Below are positions 3,537 to 13,116 of a stretch of 14,104 nt of DNA, one piece after another. The notes under the pieces are model-generated. The model ran no database searches. It was not told the origin of the DNA and saw only the letters and a list, made by a program, of their open reading frames with translations. The stretch's first letter is position 1, and each line of letters starts with the position of its first letter. Source of the DNA: a virus (lineage: Duplodnaviria; Heunggongvirae; Uroviricota; Caudoviricetes); IMG/VR virus record IMGVR_UViG_2667527839_000010. One strand, 5' to 3'. Both the position numbers and the translations under genes were made by a program.

Positions 3537-3567
3537 CAAAATACCGCTGAAAACGGAGTAATCCACG

Positions 3568-3852
3568 ATGAATATTTCAAACGGGCACAACGGTGCTCAG
3601 GGCCACACTTTGCCTGAAAAACACAATACCGGTGCTTTTGCCTATGGGTTGTCAGAGGACAGTTTCGGAAAACTGACCCGCGCAAGAAATGCCTGCGACA
3701 TGCTCCAGCTTCTCTTTTCTGAATACCCGTCTCAGGCCGGAGCACTGGACGCTGGCTGTGCGCATGGTGTCGCCGCGCTGATGGAGTACCTGCTGGCAGA
3801 TTTGACGGATATTGCACACAGCTGCGCACTGATTGAAGGAGGTGCCAGATGA
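3568..3852 (+). CDS. Hypothetical protein (94 aa), early operon
   Basis: ATG 3568 with GGAG at 3555-3558; stop overlaps the next start (ATGA at 3849-3852). Confidence 0.65.
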   Translation: MNISNGHNGAQGHTLPEKHNTGAFAYGLSEDSFGKLTRARNACDMLQLLFSEYPSQAGALDAGCAHGVAALMEYLLADLTDIAHSCALIEGGAR

Positions 3853-4232
3853 ACCAGCCGCAGGTTTCCATTTTCCCGGCAGAAATGACCACCGCGCTTT
3901 ACCGGCGGGCTATTGCTTCAGCATGGCGGCAGAAAATGCTGAACGAAACTGGCAGTGATCAGTATGGTCCTCACAGCCTGACGGTGGAGCGTATTGAAAT
4001 GGCCATTGCGCTGCATATCGAGTGCGTACTGATTAACGAGTACGGCGAAGCACAGGGCGCCGCTGCCGCGCTGGCACTGCTGACTGACATGCTGGAGCCG
4101 TCACTGCTGACCGCGCCGCCGGTACTGACCGCGCGCGGCTGTGAAGTGATGGCGGAGATGTACCGCACGCTTCCGGCGGCCTTTGATGACTTCTGCAGTA
4201 CCGGTGTGACGTTGTATCAGGGGGAAGTATGA
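3849..4232 (+). CDS. Hypothetical protein (127 aa), early operon immediately upstream of the primase
   Basis: ATG 3849 preceded by AGGAGG; stop overlaps the primase start (ATGA at 4229-4232). Confidence 0.65.
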   Translation: MNQPQVSIFPAEMTTALYRRAIASAWRQKMLNETGSDQYGPHSLTVERIEMAIALHIECVLINEYGEAQGAAAALALLTDMLEPSLLTAPPVLTARGCEVMAEMYRTLPAAFDDFCSTGVTLYQGEV

Positions 4233-6901
4233 CAATACAGACGGTTACGCAGATTTCAGCTGCCGCACGGGGGAAATGGCCCGTTATTCTCCAGATGCTG
4301 CGTATTGATGTACCTGAAAACGGCAGGCACGGTCCCTGCCCGAAATGTGGGGGCAAGGATCGTTTTCGCCTTGATGACCTTGACGGGCGCGGGACGTGGA
4401 TCTGCAGCCAGTGTGGCAATGGTGACGGTCTGGATCTGGTTAAGCTCGTAACCGGTTACAGCGTCAGAAAGGCTGCGCAGGAGGTGGCGCAGGTGCTTAA
4501 TGTGCCGGATGTGCAGGAACTGCCTGTTAAGCCTGCCAGACAAAAAGCCCCTAAACGCGACATGGGGCTTACCGTGGCGGCGCTGATGAAAGAGAGCCAC
4601 ACGGGAGAAAGCGCCTATCTGACAGGAAAAGGGTTCGCCGGATACCCGGCCTCTCTGACCGGAAGCGTGCAGCATATCAGCGGTAAGGATTTTCCTGCCG
4701 GTTCCCTGCTGTTACCACTCACGACCAACACCGGAGCCGTGACTGGTGCACAGCTTATCGCCCCGACGGGTGAAAAAAGCATACTGCCCGGCAGCACGAT
4801 GAAAGGCGCGTTTGTGTCGCTCAGCCCGTTACCGTCTGAACCACCGGTACAGGTGGTGATTACCGAAGGTTACGCTACGGCGCTGACGGTAAGTCAGCTC
4901 ACTGCCGGATGCGTAGTGGCTGCCATATCTGCGGGCAACCTGCCCAATGTGGCGCAGTCGCTGCGGGCACGCTGGCCTGAGGTAAAAATTATCATCGCCG
5001 GTGATAACGATTTTCAGGACGGAGGTGAGAATCCCGGCAGAGCCTTTGCTGAACGGGCGGCAAAAGCTGTTGGCGGCTGGATGACGCTGCCACCGGGAGA
5101 GATTAAGGCCGACTGGAATGACTTCCATCGGGAGCACGGTATTACCCGCGCCCGTGAAGCCTTTCGTAACGGTCTGGTGCTGTGCGGGGAGGGCCGCACG
5201 CAACTGCCGCACGGGTTCCGTCTTACCCAGGAATATCTCTGGTATGAAAAGCAGGTACAGCGCAACGGTGAGACGGAGATCCAGAACGTCAAAATATGCA
5301 GCCCGCTGCGCGTGACGGCAATCACCTGCGATGCCGATGGCGGTAACTTCGGACGACTGCTGGAATGGGAAGATACGTGGGGTGAGTGTCGCCGCTGGGC
5401 GATGCCGATGGAAATGCTGAGCGGCAGTGGTGAGGAACTGCGCCGGGTACTGCTGGTTAACGGGCTGTCTTATATCAGCACCACCGGTGAGGCACGCGCA
5501 CGCCTGATGGAATATATCTCACTGTGTAAACCGGAACGCCGCGTGACCTGCGTCAGTCGTACTGGCTGGCATGGTCAGGTTTACGTCCTGCAGGATGAGG
5601 TCAGCGGTGAAGGTGCAGAGGGTGTCATTCTCCAGACCACTTCCGTGCAGGGGCGTGATTTCCGCGTGTCGGGCACAACAGAGGAATGGCGGGAGCATGT
5701 ATCCCGCTACTGTACCGGCAACTCCCGCGTGGCATTTGCTGTCAGCCTGGCCTTTGCTGCACCACTGTTACGGCTGGTTGGTATGGACGGCGGCGGCTAC
5801 CACCTCAAAGGGGAATCGACAGACGGTAAGACCACCACCATGAAAGCAGCAACCTCCGTCTGCGGCGGGCCTGACTACTGGCAGACATGGCGGGCCACCG
5901 GCAACGCGCTGGAGGGATGCGCCAGCCGCCGCAACGATGCCGCCATGATGCTTGATGAGATCCGGGAAGTTGACGGACGCGAGGCAGGCAATATCGCCTA
6001 CATGCTGGCAAACGGTCAGGGCAAGGGCCGTGCCGGTACGGACGGTGAGCTGCGTACCCGTAAGCAGTGGCGCCTGTTGTTCTTTTCAACTGGCGAGTTG
6101 TCTCTGACCGAACATGCGGCAAAGGCCGGTGAGCGTACTTTTGCCGGGATGGAAGTCAGGATGATCCAGATCCCCAGCGATTCCGGGAAGTTTGGCGTTT
6201 TTGAGGAGCTGCACGGCTTCGACAGCGGCAAGGCTCTGGCAGAGCATCTTGAATGGGCCACGTCCTGCTACTACGGTTCGCCGTTCCGGGAGTGGCTGAA
6301 AGCACTGACCGCTGATCTTAACGGACTAACGGCACAGGCAAAATCGCTGATGAAGGAATATGCTGCCGCCCTGACTCCGAAAGATGCAGGCAATCAGGTG
6401 GGCCGGGCTGTGAACCGCTTTGCTCTGGTGGCGATGGCAGGTGAACTGGCAACCCGTCTGGGTATCACCGGCTGGCCTGAGGGTGAAGCACTGCGGGCAA
6501 CCCGCGTCTGCCTGAACGCATGGCTGAAAGATCGCGGGCACACCGCCAATCAGGAAGATATCGCCGCACTGGAGCAGGTTCGCAGTTTCTTTACCGCGAA
6601 TCAGTACAGCCGCTTTGCAGACTGGTATGACGAGCGCAACCGCCCCGGCAATATGGTGGGCTGGCGCAGGGTGGAGAAAGGCAGTACCGCGCAGGGCACG
6701 GAAGCTGTCACTACGTTCTATGTCATGCCGTCCGGCTGGAAAGAAATCTGCAGGGGATTTGACCCGCGCAAGGTGGCGCGTCTGTGCGCAGATCGTGGAT
6801 ACCTGCTGCCCTCCACTGATGGCAAACTCCAGACAACCATTCGCCCGCCAGAGATGAATCCCCGCAGGCTCTATGTCTTCAACAGCGAGGTGCCGGGTTA
6901 A
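4229..6901 (+). CDS. Replication primase-helicase, P4 alpha-like (zinc ribbon + TOPRIM + Walker A/B NTPase), 890 aa
   Basis: N-terminal CPKCGGKDRF...WICSQCG (CxxC..CxxC); TOPRIM-like VVITEGYATALTV and IIIAGDNDFQDGG; Walker A HLKGESTDGKTTTM and Walker B-like MMLDEIREV. Uniform coding-like composition over 2.7 kb; internal antisense ORFs are shadows. Confidence 0.9.
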   Translation: MTIQTVTQISAAARGKWPVILQMLRIDVPENGRHGPCPKCGGKDRFRLDDLDGRGTWICSQCGNGDGLDLVKLVTGYSVRKAAQEVAQVLNVPDVQELPVKPARQKAPKRDMGLTVAALMKESHTGESAYLTGKGFAGYPASLTGSVQHISGKDFPAGSLLLPLTTNTGAVTGAQLIAPTGEKSILPGSTMKGAFVSLSPLPSEPPVQVVITEGYATALTVSQLTAGCVVAAISAGNLPNVAQSLRARWPEVKIIIAGDNDFQDGGENPGRAFAERAAKAVGGWMTLPPGEIKADWNDFHREHGITRAREAFRNGLVLCGEGRTQLPHGFRLTQEYLWYEKQVQRNGETEIQNVKICSPLRVTAITCDADGGNFGRLLEWEDTWGECRRWAMPMEMLSGSGEELRRVLLVNGLSYISTTGEARARLMEYISLCKPERRVTCVSRTGWHGQVYVLQDEVSGEGAEGVILQTTSVQGRDFRVSGTTEEWREHVSRYCTGNSRVAFAVSLAFAAPLLRLVGMDGGGYHLKGESTDGKTTTMKAATSVCGGPDYWQTWRATGNALEGCASRRNDAAMMLDEIREVDGREAGNIAYMLANGQGKGRAGTDGELRTRKQWRLLFFSTGELSLTEHAAKAGERTFAGMEVRMIQIPSDSGKFGVFEELHGFDSGKALAEHLEWATSCYYGSPFREWLKALTADLNGLTAQAKSLMKEYAAALTPKDAGNQVGRAVNRFALVAMAGELATRLGITGWPEGEALRATRVCLNAWLKDRGHTANQEDIAALEQVRSFFTANQYSRFADWYDERNRPGNMVGWRRVEKGSTAQGTEAVTTFYVMPSGWKEICRGFDPRKVARLCADRGYLLPSTDGKLQTTIRPPEMNPRRLYVFNSEVPG

Positions 6902-7301: not shown

Positions 7302-8045
7302 ATGAACAACACCGCAGTGAATAACAACCTTTCCACTTTTCCGGCTGTAACGCAGCGGGCACTGGAAACCATGAACACAGCCAGAAACGCATGGCTTGAA
7401 GCACGTCGTCAGCAGAAAGCGGCAGCGGATAATATTGCGACAATCCGCCAGCGTCGCGCTGAAATGGAAGCCACGACGAACACACTGAATGAGGAGTGGC
7501 GCACGCTGTTTCGTGAAAGTCAGGGCGTGGTCTCAAAGGAAATGAAAAAACTGCGCACGGAAATTGCGCTGGGACGAGAAACGCTTGAGGATTTTGATGA
7601 GCTGCTGGCGGCTCAGGAAAGCGAAAATGCACTTTTGCCGCAGAAAGCTGCAGAATTAGCCGGAAAGTATATCCACGCGCATAACATTCTTGTGGATATT
7701 CGCGCAAAACAAATCTGGGAGGATTTTATGCAGTCGCATGGAAAAGCGCTTATTCAGACGCTGAGCCTGCTTAAATCCACAATGGGCCGGGAAGCCAGTG
7801 CCGTTGTGGGTGTGGTGAATTCAGTTAATGACCCGGACACAGTGCTGAAAGACTTTATTCATAAACATATCACCAGACCGGCTCTGGCTAACGATGCGAT
7901 GCCTGAGCAGGACCCGGTGTTTAAACTGGCGGGAGTTGCCCCGGATTATGCGGCGCGTCTGGATTTCAGTAATCAACTCTCTCCGGCAGCTATGCATAAA
8001 ATTAAGGTTCGTCAGGAACTTGCTGAGAAGGAGAAAGCAGTATGA
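7302..8045 (+). CDS. sid: Sid-like (P4 external scaffold / size-determination family), 247 aa
   Basis: ATG 7302 with AGGAG at 7292-7296. Size close to P4 Sid; shares N-terminal and central motifs with the Psu-like gene that follows (NAWLEARRQQKAA..., EDFMQSHGKALIQTL), consistent with the Sid/Psu paralogy. Family assignment is from remembered motifs and context, not alignment. Confidence 0.55.
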   Translation: MNNTAVNNNLSTFPAVTQRALETMNTARNAWLEARRQQKAAADNIATIRQRRAEMEATTNTLNEEWRTLFRESQGVVSKEMKKLRTEIALGRETLEDFDELLAAQESENALLPQKAAELAGKYIHAHNILVDIRAKQIWEDFMQSHGKALIQTLSLLKSTMGREASAVVGVVNSVNDPDTVLKDFIHKHITRPALANDAMPEQDPVFKLAGVAPDYAARLDFSNQLSPAAMHKIKVRQELAEKEKAV

Positions 8046-8593
8046 CGGCCCGAGGCACGCCTGACCAGGCACTTACCAGTTTTCGGAATGCCCGTATTCT
8101 GTGGGCCGGACATAATGAGAGCCGAAAAGCCATTGAACAACAGATAACATCTCTCCTCGCTGCCACAGAAAAACCAGCAGATTATGCCCGACAGCTCGAA
8201 TTACTGCGGGAACGTCTGGATGTGCTGAAATGGCAAATTAACTGTGCTGCGCGCGAATGCATTTACTCGCAGCATTTACTGATGGAGGCCTGCACAGAAG
8301 CCGCTCTCAGCAATTTTATGCAGGCGAATGGGGCAGCCCTGACATCTGCACTGGCTCCGTTCCTGAAGGGGCGCGGAGGGGTTGACGTTGCGTCCCGTAT
8401 ATTACGCAGTGCTCTGGTTCGCCAGCTGGCAATAACACCGCCTGAAATTGCCGGGGATTATCGTGAGATCCTGGATGAATCCGGTTTGATGCCTGACCCC
8501 GGGATGATTCGTGATTGCCAGGGTTCTTACACCCCGGCACAACATCTGCGTTTTCAGCAACGCCTGAATGACATTAACGATATACAGGAGTGA
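8042..8593 (+). CDS. psu: Psu-like (polarity suppression / capsid decoration family), 183 aa
   Basis: Start overlaps the Sid-like stop (ATGA at 8042-8045). Motifs LELLRERLDVLKWQINCAARECIYS, FMQANGAALTSALAP and YTPAQHLRFQQR resemble P4 Psu as I recall it. Confidence 0.6.
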   Translation: MTARGTPDQALTSFRNARILWAGHNESRKAIEQQITSLLAATEKPADYARQLELLRERLDVLKWQINCAARECIYSQHLLMEACTEAALSNFMQANGAALTSALAPFLKGRGGVDVASRILRSALVRQLAITPPEIAGDYREILDESGLMPDPGMIRDCQGSYTPAQHLRFQQRLNDINDIQE

Positions 8594-8598
8594 TATTA

Positions 8599-8871
8599 AT
8601 GGCACTTAAATGTCCGGAATGCGGTACAGTTGCACACGCCAGAACAGCAGCCTATGAAGCTCCGTCAGTTAAACGCTCGTGGTATCAGTGCCAGAATCTG
8701 GAATGTTCCTGCACATTTACGGCACTGGAGAGTGTGGATAAGATAATCATGAAACCCCGGCGCAATGAACAGCTATCAGACAAAGCACAATCCCCGGAAA
8801 AACAACAGAAAACGCTCAATCGCTATGGCTCCGCGTCAAAACTGTCAAGCCGTCAGCAGATTCCTGTCTGA
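8599..8871 (+). CDS. ogr: Ogr/Delta-family zinc-finger late transcription activator, 90 aa
   Basis: MALKCPECGTVAHARTAAYEAPSVKRSWYQCQNLECSCTF has the CxxC-N22-CxxC arrangement and HART/YQCQN signature of P2 Ogr / P4 Delta. ATG 8599 with AGGAG (8586-8590); the track GTG at 8590 overlaps the Psu-like stop. Confidence 0.85.
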   Translation: MALKCPECGTVAHARTAAYEAPSVKRSWYQCQNLECSCTFTALESVDKIIMKPRRNEQLSDKAQSPEKQQKTLNRYGSASKLSSRQQIPV

Positions 8872-9072: not shown

Positions 9073-9100
9073 GCGGGCAGGCGTGCGGGGCTGCCCGCAC
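9073..9100. other. GC-rich palindromic element, possible cos-like site
   Basis: gcgggcag(9073-9080)-N10-ctgcccgc(9091-9098); the core ggcgtgcgggg resembles the start of P2/186 cohesive ends as I recall them, and it sits where P4 carries cos (after the late operon). Confidence 0.25.
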
Positions 9101-9278
9101 TAACGGTGATAATTGTGATGTTGCGATATCAAGAGAGATATAAGAATGCTGTATTCAATAAGGTATTGCTTTCAATTGTTAGATTTATTTTTGTTTAAAT
9201 GTCAATGGTTTAGGTGGTTGCTGGCAGCCAGTACGCTTACTTATTGAAAATCTCGCATCTTTTGCTATCCTAACCCTA

Positions 9279-9479
9279 CCTTTACGCGCGGGATAACAGG
9301 TTTATCCTTGTCGGGCGTTTCGCCAGACACTAATTTATTGTGGACATTTAGGGTTGCGCTTTAGCACTTTCAGCAAGATCCTTCATGCCACTGCGTTCCA
9401 TTCAGGATCTTGCTGAAAGTCTAAAGCGCATCCTTTAGGTAAAGGGGTCGAAGGTGGCTGGTTAGCCACCTTTTCTTTT
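9279..9479 (+). ncRNA. Candidate retron msr-msd non-coding RNA (boundaries tentative)
   Basis: Structured leader upstream of the effector-RT operon. Possible promoter: TTGAAA (9244-9249), 16 bp, TGcTATCCT (9263-9271). Short hairpins ggataa-caggt-ttatcc (9291-9307) and gggcg-ttt-cgcc. Long hairpin with arms 9356-9382 and 9404-9429 (26/27 bp complementary, one bulge, 21-nt loop) as candidate msd. Possible short a1/a2 pair cctttac (9279-9285) / gtaaagg (9439-9445), only 7 bp. No covariance model was run. Confidence 0.4.
9453..9479 (+). terminator. Intrinsic-terminator-like hairpin between the ncRNA region and the effector gene (possible attenuator)
   Basis: 7-bp stem ggtggct (9453-9459) / agccacc (9464-9470), 4-nt loop, then TTTTCTTTT (9471-9479); the effector SD (GGAG 9481-9484) and start (9499) follow directly. 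Confidence 0.5.
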
Positions 9480-9498
9480 GGAGTAGGGGGTCACAAGG

Positions 9499-10485
9499 GT
9501 GAGTGATTCTGCATATATGAATGCATTACAAGAGCAGTTTGGAGATTTGAAATATTCAAATTTCACTGTTCAGTTCATGCCTCCTATTATTTTTGTTTGT
9601 GGTGGGCCGATAAATTCCACTCCAATGAGTGTACGAGACCACATATTTACTTATGTAGCAGGCCACAAACCTGAATTGTCAGATTCTCTTATTTTAGCTG
9701 AGAACTTCCATGACTACTTCAGAGAGGGGGCATATTCAGATCTAATGAGCTTTGAAGATGATATTGCAAATATTTCAACATTAGTTGTTATCTGTTTAGA
9801 AAGTGCAGGTTCGTTAGTTGAGCTTGGATTATTTGTTAATAGGAAGTCTCTAGCTCAAAAATTGCATGTAGTCGCACCATTTGAGGAGATTGAGGGAAAT
9901 GAACGAAAAAATATTCCTGCTAGATCTTCTTTTATATATTTAGGCCCTTTGGAGTATCTTAAAAAAATAGATGAGGCCTCAGTATCAGTTTATCCATGGC
10001 CAAAATCGGATCGTATGAAATATGATGAGGTTGAGCTTATCTACCATGATATTCATTCTAGATTAAAACGTGTAAAAAAAACGGAGCGATATAACCCTGA
10101 AAATACTGGGCACCTAGCTATATTGATTTACGAAATAATCCTTTTATCAGAACCAATCAAGAAAAGCGAAATAGAGTGGGCACTATACTGTATGGATATA
10201 GATGTGCCACAAAAAATAATATCTCGTTTACTTTATTTGCTTGAAAAGATGAAATTAACCTCATCATTATCTTACAGTGGTACAGACTACTTTTATTCCC
10301 GAGGGCATAGAGAGAGTAAACTTAAATTTGGTATCAGTGCTAGTGGTAAAATAAAGGATTCTATGAATATTAAGGTTGCAATCCGACAATCTTACTTAAG
10401 TATGGATGCTAAAGATATGGACGAGACTGCAAAAAAAAGGAAAAATGCTCTAAATCAAATCAATATCGTGCGTGGAGGGGCTTAG
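9499..10485 (+). CDS. Retron effector: nucleoside 2-deoxyribosyltransferase-like (NDT-like) domain protein with a C-terminal putative DNA-binding region, 328 aa
   Basis: N-terminal PIIFVCGGP and STLVVICLESAGSLVELGLFV fit the NDT fold (Rossmann-like strand, then a conserved Glu in a VELG context); C-terminal half is a separate, helix-rich region. GTG start at 9499 with GGAG/AGGGGG upstream; alternative ATG at 9517. Stop TAG 10483-10485 abuts the RT start. Confidence 0.8.
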   Translation: MSDSAYMNALQEQFGDLKYSNFTVQFMPPIIFVCGGPINSTPMSVRDHIFTYVAGHKPELSDSLILAENFHDYFREGAYSDLMSFEDDIANISTLVVICLESAGSLVELGLFVNRKSLAQKLHVVAPFEEIEGNERKNIPARSSFIYLGPLEYLKKIDEASVSVYPWPKSDRMKYDEVELIYHDIHSRLKRVKKTERYNPENTGHLAILIYEIILLSEPIKKSEIEWALYCMDIDVPQKIISRLLYLLEKMKLTSSLSYSGTDYFYSRGHRESKLKFGISASGKIKDSMNIKVAIRQSYLSMDAKDMDETAKKRKNALNQINIVRGGA

Positions 10486-10486
10486 A

Positions 10487-11419
10487 ATGGAGTTGCTAAG
10501 TTATATTTCAAAAGGTCTTTTTCTTAGCGAAGAAGAGGCTAAAAGGTATATTGTTACTATTCCACGCAGATATAAAATTTATCCTATCGCCAAAAGAAAT
10601 GGTAATGGATATAGATTAATTGCACAACCAGCTAGGCAAGTTAAAGCCTTACAGAAGGTAGTAATCAATCATATGTTGGCTAATTTGAAAGTTCATGAAA
10701 ATGCTTTCGCTTATGAAGCCGATAAAAGTATTAGATCTAATGCGTTAATGCATTGTAATAATGATTATTTGCTTAAAATGGATTTTAAAAACTTTTTTAT
10801 GAGTATCAAACCCCATAATCTTTTATCTGTCTTAAAAGATTATGGCGTTGAACTAACTGATACTGATATCTTTGTTCTTAAAAATCTTTTCTTCTGGAAG
10901 TTAAGAAGAAATAGCCCATTACGCCTAAGTGTTGGAGCACCTTCTTCTCCCATTATTTCAAATGCAGTAATGTATTTCTTCGATGAGGAAATATCGAAAA
11001 GATGCAAGGATTTGGATATTACCTACTCAAGGTATGCTGATGATCTTACGTTTAGCACCAAAGTCAAAGGAGCTTTATTTGATGTTCCTAAGTTAGTAAG
11101 GGAAGTTCTTAACGTAGTAAATCTTAGGAATATTAAAATAAACCATGAGAAAACAGTTTTTACCTCAAGGAAGTTTAATAGACATGTAACTGGTGTAACT
11201 ATTACGACTGATGGTTATTTGTCTTTAGGTCGTGATAGAAAGCGTCTTTTAAGAAGTAAAATACATTATTACGTGTGTGGGGTTTTATCTGAGAAAGAAA
11301 TTCTAACCCTTAAAGGAGAATTAGGCTATGCGAAATTTATTGAACATAAATTCTTTACCTCCATGATTAAGAAATATGGGGATGATGTAATCAGCGAAAT
11401 TTCAAAATATGAAATTTAA
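10487..11419 (+). CDS. ret: Retron-type reverse transcriptase, 310 aa from ATG 10487 (315 aa if GTG 10472)
   Basis: Retron RT motifs: YRLIAQPARQVKALQKVV; LLKMDFKNFFMSI (cf. DxxxFFPSI); SVGAPSSPIISNAVMYFFD (cf. QGAPTSP); YSRYADDLTFS (YADD); NHEKT; VTGVTIT (retron-specific VTG). GGAGG at 10474-10478 precedes ATG 10487. AT-rich composition matches the effector gene. Confidence 0.9.
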   Translation: MELLSYISKGLFLSEEEAKRYIVTIPRRYKIYPIAKRNGNGYRLIAQPARQVKALQKVVINHMLANLKVHENAFAYEADKSIRSNALMHCNNDYLLKMDFKNFFMSIKPHNLLSVLKDYGVELTDTDIFVLKNLFFWKLRRNSPLRLSVGAPSSPIISNAVMYFFDEEISKRCKDLDITYSRYADDLTFSTKVKGALFDVPKLVREVLNVVNLRNIKINHEKTVFTSRKFNRHVTGVTITTDGYLSLGRDRKRLLRSKIHYYVCGVLSEKEILTLKGELGYAKFIEHKFFTSMIKKYGDDVISEISKYEI

Positions 11420-11664
11420 TAGCTTGTTGTCCTAATAAATCAGCATGACTTTATCTAGCTTGCGCAAGGTTGGTTCAGAGGTTTGGTTGTTCTGGTTAGG
11501 CTCTGTAAGACGGAACCTAACTAGGCAACTCTATCTTGCTAATTCATTTATTGTGCTAGTTAGCAACAATAAGATTTTGTTGGGGGCACAAAATGGGGCA
11601 CAAGTCATAAGCTATAAAATTTTTATCATCATGTTCAATGAGTTATATAGTTATTCTATTCCGG

Positions 11665-11696
11665 CCTTCGCACCTTCGCACCTTCGCACCTTCGCA
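11665..11696. repeat. Perfect tandem repeat (CCTTCGCA)x4 within a tRNA-Leu 3'-end-like sequence (putative degenerate attR)
   Basis: ccttcgca at 11665-11672, 11673-11680, 11681-11688, 11689-11696, preceded by ttctattccgg and followed by ccatcgg. The context TTCtAtTCCGGCCTTCG-CACC...A resembles the 3' end of E. coli tRNA-Leu(CAA) leuX (..TTCGAGTCCGGCCTTCGGCACCA) as I remember it. Confidence 0.85.
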
Positions 11697-11712
11697 CCAT
11701 CGGAACATCAAT

Positions 11713-11735
11713 AGACGTCAACGGACGTTTTTTTT
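11713..11735 (+). terminator. Short hairpin plus T8 run downstream of the retron/att region
   Basis: acgtc (11715-11719) / gacgt (11724-11728), 4-nt loop, then 8 T (11728-11735). The stem is short, so confidence is moderate. Confidence 0.4.
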
Positions 11736-11901
11736 ATGACTGAAATCCGCGCCACACAAGGCTTTTCGCTATTTTTCGCTCAACCTAAGTCAACCTACAT
11801 CAACTTACTGATGTGGATACAGCTACAGCTGCGGCTATATCCCGATTCGATAATGTTTGTACCCACACAAAACCCTTGAAAGGCTACAAGGCTGAAATTG
11901 T

Positions 11902-12465: not shown

Positions 12466-13116
12466 ATGAATAAACTCCCCGATCATCTTCCTCGGCGGTA
12501 TATCATCAAAGCTATTCATTTATGGGATGCGGGAGAAACTCATCAGTTCCAGCCTGCACGGTTGTATGAGATTGAATATCATGGCCGACGTTACCCCTCG
12601 AAGGCGATTGCTGGTATCGCAGCGACATTGATGACGGGGACGCAATTTACCCCTGCGGATTTCACCGGCGGAATAAAATCTAAATGCGTCAAGCTACTTA
12701 TAGATCAGGGATTTCATATTCATCAGGATAAAGCCGCTGCGGCTCCCATAGCCGATGTTCTGTTCCCGGATGAGTTGCCGTCGCAGGGGACCTACGTTGA
12801 AGGTGCGGCGATAAAGGTGACGGTAAACCGCTATGAACGCGATAAAAAAGCTCGCGAGAAAGCAGTCGAACATCACGGATGCCAGTGCAACGTATGCGGC
12901 GTTGATCTGGTGAAGATCTATGGCGATATCGCTGAGGGTTTTATCCATATGCATCACCTGGTGCCGCTTTCAGCCATTAAAGAGGATTACCAGCTGGATC
13001 CAGTTAATGATTTACTTCCTGTGTGCCCTAATTGCCATGCGATGCTGCACCGGCGCAAACCACCGTTTACGCCGGAGGAGTTAAAAGCGCTGATGGATGC
13101 GAATAAATCAAATTAA
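12466..13116 (+). CDS. HNH endonuclease family protein (McrA-like C-terminal HNH nuclease with an N-terminal putative DNA-recognition domain), 216 aa
   Basis: C-terminal CQCNVCGVDL...FIHMHHLVPLS...DPVNDLLPVCPNCHAML matches the HNH zinc-finger nuclease motif. ATG 12466 with AAGGA (12453-12457). Confidence 0.8.
   Translation: MNKLPDHLPRRYIIKAIHLWDAGETHQFQPARLYEIEYHGRRYPSKAIAGIAATLMTGTQFTPADFTGGIKSKCVKLLIDQGFHIHQDKAAAAPIADVLFPDELPSQGTYVEGAAIKVTVNRYERDKKAREKAVEHHGCQCNVCGVDLVKIYGDIAEGFIHMHHLVPLSAIKEDYQLDPVNDLLPVCPNCHAMLHRRKPPFTPEELKALMDANKSN

Follow-up and report, generated by a model that had tools for sequence, protein, structure and literature searches.

Type II-A1 retrons combine a clade-1 reverse transcriptase (RT) with an NDT-like effector that carries a C-terminal DNA-binding domain and is encoded between the noncoding RNA (ncRNA) and the RT gene; Sen2 (St85), Vch2 and Eco3 belong to this group (Mestre et al. 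2020). Retron-Eco9, Sen2 and Vmi1 have already been dissected genetically, and their multicopy single-stranded DNA (msDNA) has been sequenced. In the Sen2 and Eco9 systems, a branching G of the RNA primes synthesis, the msd portion is copied by the RT and RNase H removes the template (Bobonis preprint; PMC8989520). The first four deoxynucleotides are removed by exonuclease VII (Exo VII), which yields unbranched DNA (PMC11701397; Bobonis preprint; PMC8989520). The msDNA of Retron-Eco9 is documented by gels, by its dependence on RNase H and Exo VII and by sequencing of the RT-DNA (Bobonis preprint; PMC8989520), and this retron defends against T2 and T7. Here, we analyzed a 14,104-nt stretch of Caudoviricetes DNA (IMG/VR record IMGVR_UViG_2667527839_000010; hereafter the window) in which a first-pass annotation, made from the letters alone, had proposed a long intergenic hairpin as the template of an msDNA. 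We estimate with a probability of roughly 94% that this hairpin is the msd of the msr-msd RNA of a type II-A1 (St85-family) retron, namely Retron-Eco9 or a near-identical allele, located in the cargo hotspot of a P4-like satellite prophage at tRNA-Leu. The proposal is thus borne out by a complete retron ncRNA, by effector and RT genes downstream, by covariation among relatives and by the mapping of published Eco9 primers.

The locus presents the order ncRNA, effector, RT that characterizes type II-A1, and both proteins fall in the corresponding families (coordinates of all features are given in Table 1). The effector matched PADLOC NDT_II-A (E = 1.6e-87) and NCBIfam STM3845_fam (223.7 bits for a cut-off of 100). 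The RT matched PADLOC RT_II-A (E = 9.7e-121) and NCBIfam retron_St85_RT (334 bits for a cut-off of 235) and possesses the motifs NALMH (NAXXH), YADD and VTG. Among the best 120 matches of the RT protein search, none was named for Ec73 or LT2 St85. A phage collection contained no near-identical DNA, and its RT relatives were at most 43% identical. The RNA was compared to the family rules of Yoo et al. 2016 (PMC4838527), by which a1/a2 repeats of 5-10 bp lie 140-200 nt apart, conserved G residues flank the palindrome on both strands, two msr stem-loops precede a long msd hairpin with compensatory changes, and the whole is found less than 2 kb upstream of a motif-bearing RT. In the window, the outer ends of a 7-bp a1/a2 pair delimit 167 nt, with one G directly after a1 and another directly before a2 (an arrangement shared by the alignment and by 15 loci compared one by one), both msr stem-loops and a covarying msd hairpin are present, and the RT gene starts at 10487, 1042 nt after a2.

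The arms of the hairpin (9356-9382 and 9404-9429), recognized by reading the sequence and by a repeat finder, are reverse-complementary. They form a stem of 26 bp, composed of nine pairs (9356-9364/9421-9429), a bulged C at 9365 and 17 pairs (9366-9382/9404-9420), around a loop of 21 nt (9383-9403). The first-pass annotation had described the same arms, single bulge and loop, but its figure of 27 bp had counted the bulge. The helix continues outward with T9355-A9430 and, beyond a T9354/T9431 mismatch, with G9353-C9432 and G9352-C9433. The full msd hairpin therefore extends over 9352-9433 (82 nt), and the 74 nt initially delimited (9356-9429) correspond to its core. A GATC duplex is found inside the stem (9377-9380 paired with 9406-9409). 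The ncRNA (9278-9449) folds as RNA at -74.2 kcal/mol relative to -42.3 +/- 3.8 for shuffled sequences (z -8.5; 0/200 shuffles), and the predicted DNA copy folds at -32.2 relative to -9.8 +/- 2.3 (z -9.9; 0/200). The stability of this hairpin, called unusual from the start, is not due to chance.

The elements expected around an msd are present as well. A scan of the intergenic stretch returned a sole promoter-like site, consisting of a -35 box TTGAAA (9244-9249), a 16-nt spacer with a TG at 9263-9264 and a -10 box TATCCT (9266-9271), and both boxes line up across homologous loci. Transcription would start at about 9278, where the match to the Rfam msr model also begins. The minimum free energy (MFE) fold contains the msd hairpin, the a1/a2 stem, G9286 and the two hairpins at 9290-9308 and 9309-9329. 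The fold, the scan and the alignments therefore recovered what the first-pass annotation had suggested upstream of the hairpin: the promoter TTGAAA / TGcTATCCT, two msr-like hairpins, the a1/a2 pair and a branching G at 9286, at which we infer that priming takes place. The first msr hairpin differs in sequence and length among relatives, and a hairpin forms there in each locus examined. The second is near-invariant and was found by pattern search in 22 of the 40 related loci described below; a role in RT recognition is expected for it from the literature (PMC6868368).

Related loci were gathered through homologues of the effector, from 90% down to about 30% identity, in Klebsiella, Pantoea, Dickeya, Providencia, Proteus, Citrobacter, Yersinia, Rahnella and more distant genera. 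The 10 loci nearest to the window all have the RNA element upstream of the effector, as do 13 of 30 more distant loci, and these 23 loci were aligned to measure covariation. A scan of genome contigs returned distant relatives only (29-47% identity). RNAalifold predicted three helices from the alignment: the a1/a2 stem, msr hairpin 2 and the msd hairpin. Compensatory changes on both sides were observed in 22 of 39 pairs. Paired cells amounted to 93.4%, relative to 79.2 +/- 0.8% in column shuffles (none of 500 reached the observed value), and dropped to 38-49% when partners were slid by 1-3 columns. The covariation score was 0.368, as compared to 0.129 for shuffled and 0.07-0.13 for slid partners. 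Compensatory changes affected 19 of the 26 aligned pairs of the msd hairpin, in which the GATCC columns hardly vary within the family, and 96% of cells were paired in msr hairpin 2.

The a1/a2 pair, which the first-pass annotation had considered its weakest part, was found independently by RNAalifold. All of its cells are paired in the 23 loci and two pairs covary, one of them being UA in 14 loci, CG in seven and UG in two. The sequences themselves differ, from CCTTTAC/GTAAAGG in the window to CTCTTTAC/GTAAAGAG in Yersinia and ACCTTTTA/TAAAAGGT in Thorsellia. The inner extra C:G is present on both sides or on neither (TTTAC-G...G-GTAAA vs TTTA-G...G-TAAA). Finally, a terminator-like hairpin with a T-run follows a2 in all 15 relatives compared one by one, with a stem sequence that differs by locus. 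The stems read GAAGGTGGCT/AGCCACCTT here and AACGAGCAA/TTGCTCGTT in a Sen2-like locus of E. coli located near mnmE (L044).

We then compared the window to Rfam families. At gathering thresholds, no match was reported anywhere in the window. When matches were instead ranked by E-value, two adjacent full-length matches were found, both scoring below their gathering thresholds: the Retron msr RNA family RF00170 at 9278-9344 (all 69 positions, 42.2 bits, E = 3e-6, gathering score 52) and the STnc400 family RF02058 at 9349-9485 (all 125 positions, 55.4 bits, E = 5e-10, gathering score 80). The search with covariance models that had been suggested to check the first reading gave these two families over their full length, but at scores for which standard Rfam annotation reports nothing. 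Each of the 10 related loci scanned has this pair of matches in front of its effector gene, and L044 exceeds both gathering thresholds (74 and 123 bits, with RF02058 at 3547-3671). No other RF00170 or RF02058 match was found in the window, including the stretch after the RT gene (11420-11700), which had been named as an alternative site for the msr or msd.

Rfam lists the Salmonella homologue of this element as a gammaproteobacterial small RNA (sRNA), STnc400, recovered in a Salmonella Hfq co-immunoprecipitation study, and the hairpin could accordingly belong to a stand-alone, trans-acting sRNA that is independent of reverse transcription. STnc400 is encoded between STM3844 and STM3845 and appears on Northern blots as a stable RNA of ~55 nt, together with its precursor of ~190 nt. 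However, STM3845 is the Sen2 toxin gene (Bobonis preprint), so that STnc400 occupies the msr-msd position of Sen2. The Rfam "sRNA", whose model spans the msd hairpin, a2 and the terminator, is therefore half of the Sen2 RNA. The length of the precursor fits a unit running from promoter to terminator, here from 9278 to ~9479 or roughly 200 nt. Moreover, a retron RT and effector accompany the element in every case, an sRNA leaves the a1/a2 and flanking-G geometry unexplained, and deletion of msrmsd or mutation of the branching G gives the retron toxin phenotype in Sen2 (Bobonis preprint). These results make an RNA acting without reverse transcription highly improbable. A second, moonlighting sRNA role beside the retron function is possible but is not needed as an explanation.

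The genomic context of the hairpin raises a different question. The window corresponds to a P4-like satellite prophage with an integrase (1-1263), an alpha primase (4229-6901) and Sid-like, Psu and Delta genes (7302-8871), and an E. coli chromosome that is 100% identical over 9200-11750 carries the same gene set, flanked by tRNA-Leu on one side and the nan/fim region on the other. Phages have extended perfect palindromes at sites of packaging and termination, and the hairpin lies in the intergenic stretch after delta, where, according to the literature, the P4 cos site adjoins a cargo hotspot known to house retrons. It might therefore be an element of the satellite itself, such as a cos palindrome or the terminator of the sid-psu-delta operon, unrelated to the retron. 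Such an element should be conserved whatever the cargo, and this is not what we observed. Homology to the backbone after delta is found in about 690 further E. coli genomes but stops at ~9100-9113, where other cargo begins; from that point, one of them (O157:H7, locus L045) presents unrelated cargo with ABC-three-component genes. The hairpin, whose presence in retron-free relatives had been named as an observation that would speak against an msd, is absent from these P4-like loci (~690 genomes, among them that of L045). Similarity to 9230-9500 was detected in 158 genomes only, 156 of which share 95% identity or more along most of its length, and the matches adjoin St85-family retron genes wherever annotation is shown. 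Homology to retron-free tRNA-Leu loci resumes at ~11673-11689, at a tRNA-Leu fragment (attR). Some of the related loci are P4-like but others are not, being located near MalT in Klebsiella and near a relaxase in Pantoea. The occurrence of the same RNA with effector and RT in both types of loci indicates that the hairpin travels with the retron genes rather than with the satellite. In addition, the msd hairpin is not followed by a T-run, and the terminator-like site is a separate hairpin between the ncRNA and the effector gene (9450-9479). The P2/P4 cos sequence used as a query, which may itself be inaccurate, had no match in the window even at three mismatches. Altogether, we consider the chance that the hairpin is a satellite element to be negligible.

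The retron can be identified more closely. Retron-Eco9 of E. coli NILS-16 (Bobonis et al. 2020/2022; Palka et al. 2022; T7 kinase study 2026) has the same layout of msr-msd, rcaT and RT. We mapped eight Eco9 primers from the table of Bobonis et al. to the window, and all eight were found in the expected order and orientation. The primers differ from the window by 1-3 missing letters each and by one substitution in JB455, the shortest (14 nt). In a shuffled window, the five primers of at least 23 nt had no match and the three short ones had only worse matches (3-4 errors). Similar letters are dropped between overlapping Sen2 primers of the same table, and we therefore read these differences as errors of text extraction. 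Primer JB390, described as "+107 of rcaT", ends exactly at 9605 when counted from 9499. Applying this counting rule to JB456 ("49 nucleotides downstream of msd-Eco9 end") places the published msd end at 9445, which is the end of a2. The phosphoserines reported for RcaT-Eco9 (S155, S181, S254 and S292; T7 kinase study 2026) all fall on Ser when residues are numbered from Met7 (ATG 9517). No other offset within +/-30 fits, and the four positions are not Ser when numbered from GTG 9499. Finally, the effector and the RT are 44% and 48% identical to those of L044, used as a stand-in for Sen2 after being checked against published Sen2 primers; these values are close to the 43% and 49% published for Eco9 and Sen2 (Bobonis preprint).

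It could be argued that the window carries a distinct, uncharacterized St85-family retron that resembles Eco9 and to which the Eco9 data would not directly apply. Close variants do circulate, with homologues of the effector at 90% and 87% identity in other genera, and each primer differs from the window by a few letters. Yet all of these differences apart from the JB455 substitution are letters absent from the primer text, the +107 and 49-nt offsets fit exactly and the four phosphoserines fit at a single offset. A separate retron thus appears very unlikely, and a distinct Eco9-like allele would leave the nature of the element unchanged. From the compared sequences, we conclude that the window most likely carries Retron-Eco9 or a near-identical allele.

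Several observations weigh against identifying the hairpin as the msd of Retron-Eco9. Neither Rfam match reaches its gathering score, and the a1/a2 stem has only 7 bp. The predicted DNA would begin with TAAA rather than with TAGA or TTGA, the tetranucleotides described for cleaved msDNAs (PMC11701397). The correspondence with Eco9 relies on primers, four residues and percent identities, and a near allele is possible. This locus is known here from its sequence, and its transcript and msDNA are predicted by homology.

Among the described retrons, Retron-Eco9 is the closest to the window. By the comparisons available (primers, phosphoserines and distance to Sen2), no difference from Retron-Eco9 could be demonstrated. 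Retron-Sen2 (St85, Salmonella Typhimurium), as represented by L044, shares the ncRNA architecture from promoter through terminator, including the GATC duplex, as well as the effector and RT families, and according to the literature its maturation needs Exo VII and RNase H. In L044, four nucleotides and a G precede a2 as in the window. However, the msd hairpin of L044 measures 70-71 nt, relative to 82-83 nt for that of the window, its a1/a2 lacks the extra C:G pair, and its DNA would start with TAGA rather than TAAA. L044 is located near mnmE, whereas the window belongs to a P4-like satellite at tRNA-Leu. Retron-Eco3 (Ec73, phiR73) is also of type II-A1, with an open reading frame between msr-msd and RT and a P4-like carrier, a likeness taken from the classification in the literature. 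In contrast, phiR73 integrates at a selenocysteine tRNA gene and its msDNA is 73 nt long, whereas the hairpin alone is 82 nt here. The type I-A retrons Eco4 (Ec83), Eco7 (Ec78) and Vch1 (Vc95) belong to the same ncRNA type (IA/IIA1) and to RT clade 1 as well, and the RT of the window scores 374 bits on PADLOC RT_I-A vs 401 on RT_II-A. Their msDNA is likewise cut four nucleotides from the 5' end (literature). Their effectors consist of a PtuA-like ATPase and an HNH nuclease, whereas the window encodes an NDT-like RcaT.

Based on the experimentally studied Sen2 and Eco9 systems, a mechanism can be proposed for this locus. The sigma-70 promoter would start an RNA of ~200 nt near 9278 that ends at the terminator (9450-9479). 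a1 (9279-9285) would pair with a2 (9439-9445), and the RT would bind the msr hairpins and use the 2'-OH of G9286 to prime the cDNA. Synthesis would begin opposite A9437 and proceed leftwards through the hairpin to ~9337-9341, with RNase H removing the template. Since TTTA is the template preceding G9438, the DNA would begin with 5'-TAAA; the tetranucleotide is TAGA in Yersinia, Citrobacter and Sen2-like relatives. Exo VII would then remove these four nucleotides and free a hairpin DNA with the GATC duplex in its stem. Homology and the literature suggest that, once cut in this way, the mature DNA would not be branched to RNA. The RT-msDNA complex would bind and neutralize the RcaT toxin; once a phage function methylated, degraded or sequestered the msDNA, the toxin would be released and the infection aborted. 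For Sen2 and Eco9, the toxin is described as being triggered when Dam methylates a GATC duplex of the stem (in Sen2, this duplex is the site at which Dam acts), when RecE degrades the msDNA or when another RT sequesters it.

The size of the product can be estimated in the same manner. The Sen2-like hairpin is 71 nt long and the reported DNA is 85 nt, so the DNA must extend 10-14 nt into the conserved linker. By analogy, the 3' end would be at about 9337-9341 here, and the linker (9330-9351) would be the overlap between the 3' end of the msr and that of the msDNA, where reverse transcription stops. The mature msDNA would then probably be about 93-97 nt long (97-101 nt before trimming). The 75-85 nt predicted by the first-pass annotation are probably too short because the 3' tail overlaps the end of the msr.

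Expression of the toxin and RT would need read-through of the hairpin at 9450-9479. It is possible, although rather doubtful, that this terminator is a built-in attenuator and that the signatures of the Eco9 subgroup (the extra C:G in a1/a2, TAAA for TAGA and 12 nt of additional hairpin length) adjust processing by Exo VII or the specificity of triggering. The ~200-nt ncRNA would in this case be the main transcript, with rcaT and RT reached by read-through only, which would set an excess of antitoxin template over toxin. No description of such a role was found in the retron literature searched.

Because the element is already known as Retron-Eco9, a studied anti-phage retron of a P4-like satellite prophage, our results have little weight as a discovery and their value lies in annotation. 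RefSeq annotates just the two proteins at this retron, Rfam thresholds miss the ncRNA and half of its Salmonella homologue is filed as an sRNA, so that exact coordinates may be of help. They may serve work on the 156 complete E. coli genomes with the element; isolates from humans are numerous among the carriers listed. These results also indicate that a retron ncRNA can be recovered correctly by careful reading of raw sequence.

Table 1. Features of the retron locus and positions of published Eco9 primers in the window.
Feature	Coordinates	Strand	Evidence or remark
Sigma-70 promoter of the retron ncRNA	9244..9271	+	Promoter scan, 9/12 matches, upstream TG
a1, 5' arm of closing stem (CCTTTAC)	9279..9285	+	MFE fold, RNAalifold, pair counts
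Putative branching (priming) G, whose 2'-OH would prime reverse transcription	9286	+	Aligned loci all have a G right after a1
msr stem-loop 1 (GGGATAA/CAGGT/TTATCCT)	9290..9308	+	MFE fold; hairpin here in every locus examined
msr stem-loop 2 (UGUC-G-GGCG UUU CGCC-A-GACA)	9309..9329	+	MFE fold; core of RF00170 match
Conserved linker CTAATTTATTGTGGACATTTAG	9330..9351	+	Highly conserved alignment columns; Rfam msr model ends at 9344
msd hairpin, template for the msDNA stem-loop	9352..9433	+	Repeat finder, folds, compensatory changes
TTTA, predicted template of the initial DNA tetranucleotide 5'-TAAA	9434..9437	+	Alignment
Conserved G directly 5' of a2, facing the branching G	9438	+	Alignment of homologous loci
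a2, 3' arm of closing stem (GTAAAGG)	9439..9445	+	Repeat finder, MFE fold, RNAalifold, pair counts
Intrinsic-terminator-like hairpin (10 bp, 4-nt loop, then T-run)	9450..9479	+	Terminator scan; within STnc400 match
rcaT-type effector (toxin), NDT-like, St85 family, 328 aa	9499..10485	+	PADLOC, NCBIfam
Retron reverse transcriptase	10487..11419	+	Pfam RVT_1, PADLOC, NCBIfam
Primer JB370	9250-9276		Primer map
Primer JB455 ("start of msr")	9275-9289		Primer map
Primer JB456	9479-9494		Primer map
Primer JB368	9502-9529		Primer map; effector start side
Primer JB390	9577-9605		Primer map
Primer JB369	10473-10490		Primer map; effector end side
Primer JB458	10487-10517		Primer map; RT start side
Primer JB371	11442-11465		Primer map; RT end side

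The start of the effector gene is ambiguous. RefSeq and the primers of Bobonis et al. use the GTG at 9499 (328 aa), whereas a start at the ATG at 9517 (322 aa) fits the residue numbering of the T7 kinase paper.

The satellite itself also presents variation. In strain 81, the retron region is 100% identical to that of the window, but the distance from integrase to retron is 870 bp shorter and the alpha primase is annotated with 600 aa (L001 5900-7702) vs an open reading frame of 890 aa in the window, so that the satellite backbone varies among carriers of the same retron. In the attR region, just before homology resumes, the 8-bp tandem repeat CCTTCGCA is found in 4.8 copies (11665-11702). Its copy number is strain-variable: M217 is without 24 bp (three units) and is otherwise identical across the stretch. 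These repeats could be binding sites of the integrase or of Xis. Past attR and outside the satellite, the segment 11900-13116 contains an HNH endonuclease gene (12466-13116) and a fragment that RefSeq annotates as a pseudogene of a phosphorothioated-DNA-binding restriction endonuclease. About 3200 E. coli records have this segment at least partly, and it appears to be the remnant of a separate island at the tRNA-Leu locus. Finally, L044 contains a strong match to the Rfam EFASI RNA (6209-6339; 90 bits for a gathering score of 51), which lies ~600 nt downstream of the RT gene and overlaps the start of a toprim-domain gene.

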